In this document: piece after piece, positions 41,110 to 52,181 of the stretch
How the letters are laid out: each line of letters opens with the position of its first letter
Numbering within the stretch: the stretch's first letter is position 1
From: Escherichia coli
GTDB lineage: Bacteria; Pseudomonadota; Gammaproteobacteria; Enterobacterales; Enterobacteriaceae
Assembly: GCF_003334255.1 (NCBI RefSeq)
Contig: NZ_QOWU01000006.1
DNA: 64,000 nucleotides
Strand: one strand, 5' to 3'
Made by a program: the position numbers and the translations under genes
Notes under the pieces: model-generated
What the model saw: only the letters and a program-made list of their open reading frames with translations
The model's database searches: none
Told to the model about the DNA's origin: nothing

Positions 41110-42762
41110 TTACGCGCTCAACAGTTGCTTCATGTCTTCTTCAACAGTGGTGATAGAACGCAGGCCGAATTTCTCGTTCAGCACCGCCAGCAGGTCTGGT
41201 GTCAGGAAACCAGGTGCAGTCGGGCCGGTGACGATATTTTTCACGCCCAGAGAAAGCAGCGTCAGCAGAATGACGATCGCTTTCTGTTCAAACCAGGAGA
41301 GCACCAGCGACAGCGGCAGATCGTTGACACCGCAGCCCAGTTTCTCTGCCAGAGTGACAGCCAGAATAATCGCTGAGTAAGCATCGTTACATTGACCTGC
41401 ATCTACCAGACGCGGCAGACCTTCGATATCGCCAAACTCAAGTTTGTTAAAGCGATATTTACCACAGGCGAGGGTCAGGATCAGGCAGTCATCCGGCACG
41501 CTGGTGGCGAAATCGGTGAAGTAGTGGCGCTCGCCGCGTGCGCCGTCACAGCCACCAAGCAGGAAGATATGACGCAGTTTTTCACGGCTCACCAGATCAA
41601 TCAGCGTATCAGCAGCGCCAAGCAGCGTCTGGCGACCAAAACCCACGGTGATAAGGTGCGGAATTTCGCTGTACGGGAAGCCTGCCATCTGTTGCGCCTG
41701 GGTGATAACCGCAGAGAAATCATCACCGTCCAGATGACGCACGCCAGGCCAGCCAACAATGCTGCGGGTCCAGATACGATCGTCATAAGCGCCTACGGTT
41801 GGGTCGATGATGCAGTTCGAGGTCATCACGATGGGGCCAGGGAAACGAGCGAACTCCACTTGCTGATTCTGCCAGCCGCTGCCGTAGTTACCGACCAGAT
41901 GCTTGAATTTACGCAGCTCCGGGTAGCCATGCGCAGGCAGCATTTCGCCGTGGGTGTAGACATTAACGCCCGTGCCTTCGGTCTGTTCCAGCAGGTTGTA
42001 GAGATCTTTGAGATCGTGACCGGAAATCAGAATGCATTTACCCGCCGTCGCTTTGACGTTGACCTGGGTTGGCGTCGGGTGACCGTATTTACCGGTTTCG
42101 CCTGCATCCAGAATGCTCATCACTTTGAAGTTCATCTGGCCGATTTCCATTGAACACTCAAGAAGCGCGTTCATATCGGCAGGCCAGGTCCCCAGCCACG
42201 CCATGATTTTATGGTACTGGGCATAAATATCGTTGTCGTATTGACCGAGAACATGCGCGTGTTCCATATAGGCCGCCGCACCTTTCAGGCCATACAGGCA
42301 CAGCAGACGCAGGCCGAGAATGTTTTCGCCAATCGCCGCTTTATCTTTGTTAGGGGTAAATTCTGCTGCCTGACGTTGCAGCTCGCCGAGATCGTCGCTC
42401 ACCAGTTGCAGGTCAGCCATCGGGTTATCGACGCGCGCGTTGGCATCTACAGCCAGGCATTGCGCTTTCAGCGCCTCGCGCAGGGCAATCGCTTCACGAG
42501 CGTAGCCGACAATACGCGGAGAATCGAAGTTAACGTTGGTCAGGGTTGAGAAAAAGGCACGTGGCGCGAAGCTGTCAACATCGTGGTTGATGATGCCGTA
42601 TTCACGCGCTTTTACCGCCCAGGCAGAAAGCCCTTGCAGCGCCGCGATGAGTAAATCCTGAAGGTCAGAAGTTTCCGCCGTTTTACCACACATCCCCTGC
42701 GCGTATGAGCAGCCGTTTCCTGCCGGAGTACGGATAGTTTGTTCACATTGCACACAAAACAT
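41110..42762 (-). CDS. hcp: Hybrid-cluster protein Hcp (hydroxylamine reductase / NO-stress)
   Basis: ORF 41110..42768; ATG at 42762 (MFCVQCEQT) gives 550 aa; N-terminal Cys cluster. Confidence 0.9.
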
Positions 42763-42774
42763 GATCACACCTTT

Positions 42775-42800
42775 TAAAGTTATATTTAATATACATGTTT
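42775..42800 (-). promoter_or_regulatory. Candidate NsrR-type AT-rich palindromic operator in hcp promoter
   Basis: aaagTTATATTTAATATACATGttt near-palindrome within 40 bp of hcp start; hcp is a known NsrR target (recall). Confidence 0.35.
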
Positions 42801-42858
42801 AAGGTTAAGACGCTTAACGCGGGGATAAAAGGGATTTTTCATGCAACTTTAAGGGAGA

Positions 42859-42872
42859 TTGATTTAGCGCAA
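42859..42872 (-). promoter_or_regulatory. Candidate FNR-like site upstream of hcp
   Basis: Minus strand TTGCGctaaATCAA resembles TTGAT-N4-ATCAA, about 100 bp upstream of hcp start. Confidence 0.35.
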
Positions 42873-42905
42873 TTTTGGCGGCAGGGATCTACCGCCAGAG
42901 AGGTA

Positions 42906-43805
42906 TTACGCAGAGAAAAAGGCGATGAGGATCGGCACTAACAGGCTAAGAATAAAACCGTGAACAATTGCCGCCGGGACCATATCCAGCCCGCCAGTAC
43001 GTTGAAGAACGGGCAGGGTGAAATCCATTGATGTGGCACCGCATAAGCCCAGTGCAGTAGAGCGGCTGCGGCGAATCAGCCCAGGGATCAACATAATAGC
43101 AATCAGTTCACGGGCCAGATCATTAAAAAACGCCGCGCTCCCGATTACCGGACCAAAAGATTCGGTCAATAAAATACCGGAAAGAGAATACCAGCCGAAA
43201 CCGGAGGCCATTGCCAGCGCGGTATTGATGGGGAGATCAAGAATAAAGGCGTTAATTAAACCACCAATTAATGAACTGACAACCACCACCACGGCGACAA
43301 TCATTCCCCGGCGATTAAGGACAATCTGCTTTAAGGTCATGCCATTATTGCGCAACTGAATACCAACGAGGAAAAGTAGCAAAATTAACGTGTATTCACT
43401 GGCTTCGGTCGCGTGTTGTAAGAAAGCCAGTCCACTTAGACCAATGGCAAAACCAATCACTACTACGCCGCACAGTTTTAGCGACTCCAGCGCCATCGCA
43501 ATACGCGACGGGAGTTTTTCTTGCTGATGGTGGTTGCGCCACGGCAGGCCTCGCTCCAGCCACATCAGGGCGGCAATATTACACAGTAAAATAACGGTAA
43601 TACTGACGGCAGAATAATGCAGAATCGCCAACAGGTTACTGGCGAGGTTATCGAGAAACGCCAGACTGATACCCATAAAAAAGAGAATAAGGTAAACCAT
43701 CCAGCTTAATAGCTGATTAATAACTTTTAACGCAGCTTGTTGGCGAAGCGGAATGAGGTAACCCACAATCAGGGGAACCAGAATGATTAACAGCCCAGAA
43801 AACAT
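42906..43805 (-). CDS. lysO: Lysine exporter LysO (YbjE)
   Basis: ORF 42906..43853; ATG at 43805 (MFSGLLIILVPLIVGYL) gives 299 aa; polytopic. Confidence 0.85.
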   Translation of the reverse strand: MFSGLLIILVPLIVGYLIPLRQQAALKVINQLLSWMVYLILFFMGISLAFLDNLASNLLAILHYSAVSITVILLCNIAALMWLERGLPWRNHHQQEKLPSRIAMALESLKLCGVVVIGFAIGLSGLAFLQHATEASEYTLILLLFLVGIQLRNNGMTLKQIVLNRRGMIVAVVVVVSSLIGGLINAFILDLPINTALAMASGFGWYSLSGILLTESFGPVIGSAAFFNDLARELIAIMLIPGLIRRSRSTALGLCGATSMDFTLPVLQRTGGLDMVPAAIVHGFILSLLVPILIAFFSA

Positions 43806-44995: not shown

Positions 44996-45420
44996 ATCCA
45001 CCTCAATTAAAAATTGACCCTGTGAAAAATATGGTCGTTTTATAGGGTCGTCGTAAAAAAGTGACGACGGAAATAATGCGCGGCTATTTTAAAAACGAAG
45101 GCGAGTCATTCACCAGATAAATAAATCCAGTAAATTTGATTTAGGGCAACAGCGGGTTGCCCCATATAGTCATTTGTCTGATTGACAGTGTAGTGCACGC
45201 AAAAGATTTAATCCTTTAGGCGTAATAAAAAATAATTTATCATGCTAATTATTTGATTTTGTTGTTTTTGCAGACTTATCAGCAAGAGGGAGTATAACGC
45301 GATTATTCGCTCATTTTTCAGACATTTGCCATGCTTAAATGTGATGTCATCACGTATTAGCAAGGCCTTTCCCGTTATACTGCCAGCGTAAAGGATAAGT
45401 CACATATTTCTGGAGGGGAT

Positions 45421-51860: not shown

Positions 51861-52181
51861 ATGGGTAAAACGAACGACTGGCTGGACTTTGATCAACTGG
51901 CGGAAGAAAAAGTTCGCGACGCGCTAAAACCGCCATCTATGTATAAAGTGATATTAGTCAATGATGATTACACTCCGATGGAGTTTGTTATTGACGTGTT
52001 ACAAAAATTCTTTTCTTATGATGTAGAACGTGCAACGCAATTGATGCTCGCTGTTCACTACCAGGGGAAGGCCATTTGCGGAGTCTTTACCGCCGAGGTT
52101 GCAGAAACCAAAGTGGCGATGGTGAACAAGTACGCGAGGGAGAATGAGCATCCATTGCTGTGTACGCTAGAAAAAGCCTGA
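51861..52181 (+). CDS. clpS: ClpS, N-end rule adaptor for ClpAP
   Basis: 106 aa ORF. Confidence 0.9.

Follow-up and report, generated by a model that had tools for sequence, protein, structure and literature searches.

The hcp promoter of an Escherichia coli chromosomal segment carries the published FNR and NsrR sites of the K-12 hcp-hcr promoter

The two motifs found upstream of hcp in this 64,000-nucleotide stretch of Escherichia coli DNA (hereafter the window) have both been described before: one is the FNR activator site and the other the NsrR repressor site of the E. coli hcp-hcr promoter, and in that respect they hold nothing new. The promoter as a whole is almost certainly the K-12-type hcp-hcr promoter, which is activated by FNR and repressed by NsrR across the transcription start. 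An initial annotation, made by eye from the letters of the DNA, had suggested nitric oxide (NsrR) and anaerobic (FNR) control of hcp. That suggestion is supported here, since both assignments coincide with published sites, and comparison with the mapped hcp promoter placed the published sites where they had been noted and none elsewhere.

The motifs lie on the E. coli chromosome in a neighborhood formed by poxB, hcr, hcp, lysO (ybjE), aqpZ, and ybjD. A 401-bp query spanning the promoter motifs matched 5425 of 5426 complete E. coli genomes, in which the flanking genes are annotated as hcp and lysO. The coding sequence of hcp (hybrid-cluster protein/hydroxylamine reductase) occupies 41110..42762 on the minus strand, with its ATG at 42762-42760, according to the RefSeq annotation of an identical E. 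coli record mapped on the window; the open reading frame listing gave a longer frame with a GTG start at 42768. The TAA stop codon of lysO is at 42908-42906, and a spacer length of 143 bp was used for chance estimates. The spacer together with a few bases of each flank (42763-42910, 148 bp) is 100% identical to K-12 MG1655, and thus the literature on the K-12 hcp promoter is applicable base for base. In particular, the promoter in the window and the K-12 hcp-hcr promoter (ybjW-ybjV, nipAB) are the same locus: the FNR 14-mer, NsrR 19-mer, and mapped start all coincide, and there are no differences between them. Filenko 2005/2007 and Chismon 2010 are also said to have described the promoter of this operon. 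The hcp promoter is moreover in routine use as an NsrR-dependent reporter of cytoplasmic NO. The accounts compared with the window below are those of Rodionov 2005, Myers 2013, and Mehta 2015.

The NsrR operator at the transcription start

The NsrR operator, on the minus strand at 42777..42799, reads AACATGTATAT T AAATATAACTT and forms an 11-1-11 inverted repeat with a 19-mer core at 42779-42797. Its halves match at 7 of 11 positions as an inverted repeat, and the center of the element is a perfect 13-bp palindrome, TATATTAAATATA, at 42793..42781; a repeat search extends it to an imperfect 18+1+18 palindrome (42769..42805, 72% complementary). The initial annotation had described an AT-rich near-palindrome at 42775-42800 overlapping the likely -10 region. 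The element itself was found, but what it overlaps is the experimentally mapped transcription start rather than the -10. This start, the T of AAACATG-T-AT at 42793 on the minus strand, leaves a 31-nt leader (Rodionov 2005 Fig. S1), and relative to it the operator spans -6..+17, a position where binding can repress.

The strength of the operator was assessed with a 19-mer matrix built from 24 non-hcp enterobacterial sites, namely those of ytfE/dnrN, hmp, ygbA, tehB, and narK (Rodionov 2005 Table S2). With hcp thus left out, the hcp 19-mer scored 19.8 bits and ranked first in the window, where the next match reached 11.2 bits. This score was attained in none of 100 random 64-kb sequences (maximum 18.2) and in none of 2000 spacer shuffles, and it lies slightly under the range of the training sites (21.8-32.3). 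The right half of the operator is degenerate, with 6 of 22 positions deviating from the AAGATGCATTT consensus. Compared with the operators of ytfE, hmp, and ygbA, which have the form AAGATGCATTT-N-AAATGCATCTT and are each, like that of hcp, near the promoter of an NO-stress gene, the hcp operator shares the 11-1-11 dyad architecture and the AA and TT flanks but is more degenerate: a T replaces C in its left half (ATGTAT), and its right half reads ATATAA where the consensus has ATGCAT.

Published data assign the same element to NsrR. The FNR and NsrR sites of hcp were both predicted from an alignment of seven enterobacteria, cATGtATaTTAAATatAaC being given for E. coli hcp-hcr, and the Salmonella hcp operator 19-mer is identical to the E. 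coli one (Rodionov 2005 and its Table S2). Occupancy in vivo was observed in strain CFT073, where the NsrR ChIP-seq peak at hcp has 12-fold enrichment and its summit 22 nt upstream of the hcp ATG (~42784 in the window); the NsrR half-sites given there, 15 and 27 nt upstream of the ATG, correspond to 42777-42787 and 42789-42799 (Mehta 2015). In the same strain, nitrate induces hcp 44-fold (Mehta 2015), and in a Salmonella nsrR mutant hcp is derepressed, with its mRNA up 284-fold.

One may argue that the AT-rich palindrome is mainly a piece of core promoter rather than a repressor operator, as TATATT (42792-42787) and TATAAC (42784-42779) within it are similar to TATAAT and AT-rich DNA just upstream of genes often contains a -10, which could serve this promoter or a second one further downstream. 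This is very unlikely, as the mapped start at T 42793 is upstream of both hexamers, and any transcript initiated beyond them would have a leader of no more than ~15 nt. Furthermore, a consensus scan found no sigma-70 promoter there, the conserved positions of the element track the NsrR dyad (ATGyAT..ATrCAa) and not TAnnnT, and the NsrR ChIP-seq summit falls on the element.

The palindrome was also considered as an RNA element and rejected as such, with no Rfam match at E <= 1 and a leader that folds no better than its shuffles (z = 0.41).

The FNR site

The FNR binding site, TTGCGCTAAATCAA, is on the minus strand at 42859..42872. A TTGCG-N4-ATCAA motif had been noted there within about 110 bp upstream of hcp, and TTGCG-CTAA-ATCAA, read in the sense of hcp, fills exactly 42872..42859, its far end being 110 nt from the hcp ATG. 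The by-eye motif calls thus proved accurate to the base, and in the matrix scan that the initial annotation had named as a check, neither the FNR site (12.8 bits) nor the NsrR site fell below threshold.

The FNR matrix was symmetrised and built from 61 ChIP-seq-supported sites (Myers 2013 Table S6), with those of hcp and aqpZ left out. The score of the hcp site lies within the range of the training sites (11.7-21.4 bits) and ranks third among the 63,987 positions of the window. Markov-1 random sequence would yield about 1.6 sites this good per 64 kb, and the score by itself is therefore unexceptional over 64 kb; the corresponding expectation for the 143-bp spacer is ~0.004. The left half-site, TTGCG, departs from the consensus dyad TTGAT-N4-ATCAA.

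Two other positions of the window score above the hcp site on this matrix. The best match, TTGATTTAGGGCAA at 45136-45149 (13.75 bits), is in the divergent intergenic region between aqpZ and ybjD and is one base different from the hcp site; it is a predicted site under an FNR ChIP-seq peak, with a PatSer score of 13.95, and overlaps IHF enrichment (Myers 2013). The other, GTGATATTAGTCAA at 51948-51961 (13.4 bits), is within the clpS coding sequence and probably belongs to the chance-level or silent sites, of which ~1.6 are expected per 64 kb.

At hcp, an FNR peak was found by all ChIP-seq and ChIP-chip methods, the underlying site is listed as TTGATTTAGCGCAA, the plus-strand spelling of 42859-42872, with a PatSer score of 13.11 and an ln p of -11.6 that passes the threshold of -10.75 used in that study, and hcp-hcr is categorised as directly activated by FNR (Myers 2013). 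The dyad is centered at 42865.5, and a start at T 42793 places it at -72.5, which is the published value (Myers 2013 Table 1). This position resembles those of class I FNR/CRP-dependent promoters, in which the activator is near -61.5, -71.5, or -72.5: as in these, there is a single FNR dyad, well upstream of the -35 and facing the same side of the helix, together with weak core hexamers and an A-tract at -46..-42. It differs from most FNR-activated promoters, since 19 of 23 of these have a site centered at -41.5 +/- 4 (class II), and -72.5 is thus uncommon (Myers 2013); hcp also differs in its left half-site, which is non-consensus yet conserved.

Related dyads are recognised by other members of the Rrf2 and CRP/FNR families, and the palindrome could in principle be bound chiefly by another Rrf2 protein (IscR) or by OxyR, and TTGCG-N4-ATCAA by CRP or another protein of the CRP/FNR family. 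OxyR is reported to influence hcp (work ascribed to Almeida 2006 and Seth 2012), which counts for OxyR as a ligand, and Almeida 2006 is cited elsewhere in connection with Hcp and oxidative stress. Nevertheless, another protein as the main ligand of either site is extremely improbable. The palindrome resembles the NsrR sites of ytfE, hmp, and ygbA far more than the rest of the window does, the NsrR and FNR ChIP signals lie on the two sites, and published nsrR and fnr phenotypes point the opposite way. In addition, CRP would need TGTGA-N6-TCACA with its 6-bp spacing, which is absent. With NsrR and FNR as the main ligands, any additional binders (IscR, OxyR, CRP) would be secondary ligands at most, given their poorer fit.

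Core promoter and neighboring elements

A scan of the hcp-lysO spacer for sigma-70 consensus promoters and terminators gave no matches, and the lack of a strong sigma-70 match is consistent with an activator-dependent promoter. On the basis of spacing and conservation, the -10 is probably TAACCT (42802..42807, minus strand; -14..-9), in which TA...CT is conserved in 93 aligned upstream regions, and the -35 is probably TTTTAT (42825..42830, minus strand; -37..-32), where CTTTT at 42831-42827 is 80-90% conserved; the two hexamers are separated by 17 bp. With regard to the sigma factor, a sigma-70 ChIP peak was not seen at hcp, and dependence on sigma-E was attributed to the promoter with reference to Rhodius 2006 (Myers 2013). 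The main text of Rhodius 2006 makes no mention of hcp or ybjW, and a simple scan for GGAACTT-N15-17-TCTGA/TCAAA found no sigma-E-like promoter in the 540 nt upstream of hcp. In our view, occlusion of the start by NsrR in nitrite-free medium would account for the missing sigma-70 signal.

The probable -10 is also overlapped by a perfect 6-3-6 palindrome, GTTAAG-CGT-CTTAAC, at 42804-42818. It is unconserved outside Escherichia, with column identities mostly of 10-60%, and it may be a chance occurrence or a species-specific site.

Between the FNR site and the -35 lies a further conserved block, AAGTTGCATGA A AAATCCCTTTT, at 42827..42849 on the minus strand (-56..-34), recognised in the footprint of 93 upstream regions. 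It contains an A-tract, AAAAATCCC (-46..-38), that resembles a proximal UP element. In CFT073, AAGTTGCATTA was given as a possible NsrR half-site (Mehta 2015), and that strain differs from the window at one base of the block: position 42840, within the AAGTTGCAT(G/T)A element (42839-42849), is polymorphic in E. coli, with G in K-12 and the window and T in CFT073 and in one further locus of our set (L049). The half-site scores 2.5 bits with the G allele of the window versus 9.8 bits with T, and as a full NsrR site the allele of the window reaches only 2.2 bits. At a fixed offset, the block scores >5 bits as a full NsrR site in 17 of 92 Enterobacterales loci and >12 bits in 5 of 92. It is doubtful that the block (AAGTTGCAT.A-A-AAA..CCTTTT, 42849-42827) is a second, weak NsrR operator whose strength varies among strains through G or T at 42840. 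If it were, this operator would sit where the C-terminal domain of the alpha subunit (alpha-CTD) and region 4 of sigma dock, and NsrR would block FNR-dependent recruitment as well as the start. A UP-like A-tract plus the -35 is the simpler and more ordinary reading of the conservation of this block.

Just upstream of the FNR site there is a NarL/NarP-type 7-2-7 site that the initial annotation had not mentioned, TACCTCT-CT-GGCGGTA, at 42890..42905 on the minus strand, which adjoins the lysO stop codon (42906-42908). It has two mismatches to TACYYMTNNAKRRGTA; measured against TACYYMT, the left heptamer is perfect and the right one matches at 5 of 7 positions, which makes it a candidate site. 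In 36 of 92 loci, a NarL/NarP-type site with <=4 mismatches stands at an unchanged distance from the FNR site. In the window its center is at -104.5, reportedly also the NarL/NarP position in Filenko 2007 and Chismon 2010. Experimental dependence of the hcp promoter on NarL/NarP has been cited as well (Rodionov 2005).

A hairpin, GGCGG-TAGATCCCTG-CCGCC (42877-42896), directly follows the lysO stop codon, and the right heptamer of the NarL/NarP-type site forms its left arm. The terminator scan did not call this hairpin because it has no T-run, and it could be a weak lysO terminator or a barrier to read-through.

Conservation and proposed mode of regulation

The conservation of the promoter was assessed in contigs from one genome per species, in which 120 loci were identified by exact matches to the conserved beginning of the hcp frame, 105 of them with the hcp ATG in register. 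An FNR-type site of >9 bits is present in 104 of these 105 loci, ~101-128 nt upstream of the ATG, an NsrR-type site of >12 bits in 91, and both in 90. In 54 loci the two centers are 77.5 bp apart, which is also their distance in the window, and the distance falls between 75.5 and 83.5 bp in 89 of the 90 two-site loci, all of them from Enterobacterales; the sole exception is an Aeromonas locus. Among the 92 Enterobacterales loci, 90 have an NsrR-type site above 12 bits, centered 24-31 nt upstream of the ATG (52-53 nt in Proteus), 53 have the identical FNR 14-mer including the non-consensus TTGCG, and 22 have the identical 23-bp NsrR operator.

In an alignment of 93 distinct hcp upstream regions, conservation is confined to discrete blocks: the FNR site, AAGTTGCA at -56..-49, AAA at -44..-42, CTTTT at -38..-34, TA..CT at -14..-9, the NsrR operator, and the ribosome-binding region. 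The stretches separating these blocks vary freely. That both motifs are chance matches in an AT-rich spacer, with no regulatory role, thus has a virtually negligible probability: short AT-rich palindromes are common in intergenic DNA and the FNR score is of a kind expected by chance in 64 kb, but shuffled and random sequences do not reach the NsrR score, both sites stand at fixed spacing in 89 Enterobacterales hcp loci with variable sequence between them, and published ChIP-seq shows both to be occupied.

Two lineages depart from this arrangement. In Proteus penneri and P. hauseri, the FNR and NsrR sites remain 75.5 bp apart but both stand ~25 nt farther upstream of the hcp ATG, which implies a longer leader. 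In Aeromonas, the NsrR operator is absent from 12 of 13 loci, and the lone match of >12 bits merely overlaps the FNR site. All 13 Aeromonas loci have a consensus FNR dyad at a similar distance, ~106-108 nt upstream of the hcp ATG; TTGATCNNNATCAA occurs in 12 of the 13, and TTGATCTGCATCAA is the dyad in 11 of the 13 upstream regions. Because an NsrR-type operator is missing, NO or nitrite control of Aeromonas hcp, as judged from these upstream regions, must be exerted by another regulator or be absent.

The following mode of regulation, which none of the observations contradicts, is proposed for the promoter in the window. Transcription starts at T 42793 from a weak sigma-70 promoter with the probable hexamers TTTTAT and TAACCT, and FNR bound to TTGCGCTAAATCAA switches hcp-hcr on when oxygen is lacking. 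At the class I position of -72.5, FNR would be too far upstream to contact sigma, and because of this position and of what is established for class I promoters of CRP and FNR, polymerase would be expected to be recruited via the alpha-CTD, with the A-tract AAAAATCCC offering a suitable docking site. The [Fe-S] repressor NsrR, bound to the operator across the start, keeps the promoter off and would exclude polymerase or block formation of the open complex, presumably by steric hindrance. NO arising from nitrite or nitrate damages the cluster of NsrR, upon which NsrR leaves and FNR-dependent transcription proceeds, and the NarL/NarP-type site at -104.5 may add an input from nitrate and nitrite.

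In summary, the hcp-hcr promoter is a long-studied case of combined control by oxygen (FNR), nitrate/nitrite (NarL/NarP), and nitric oxide (NsrR), and the window leaves this picture unchanged. A small comparative addition is that loci across Enterobacterales keep both the TTGCG half-site and a distance of ~77.5 bp from FNR to NsrR center, and that Aeromonas has a consensus FNR site and no NsrR operator.
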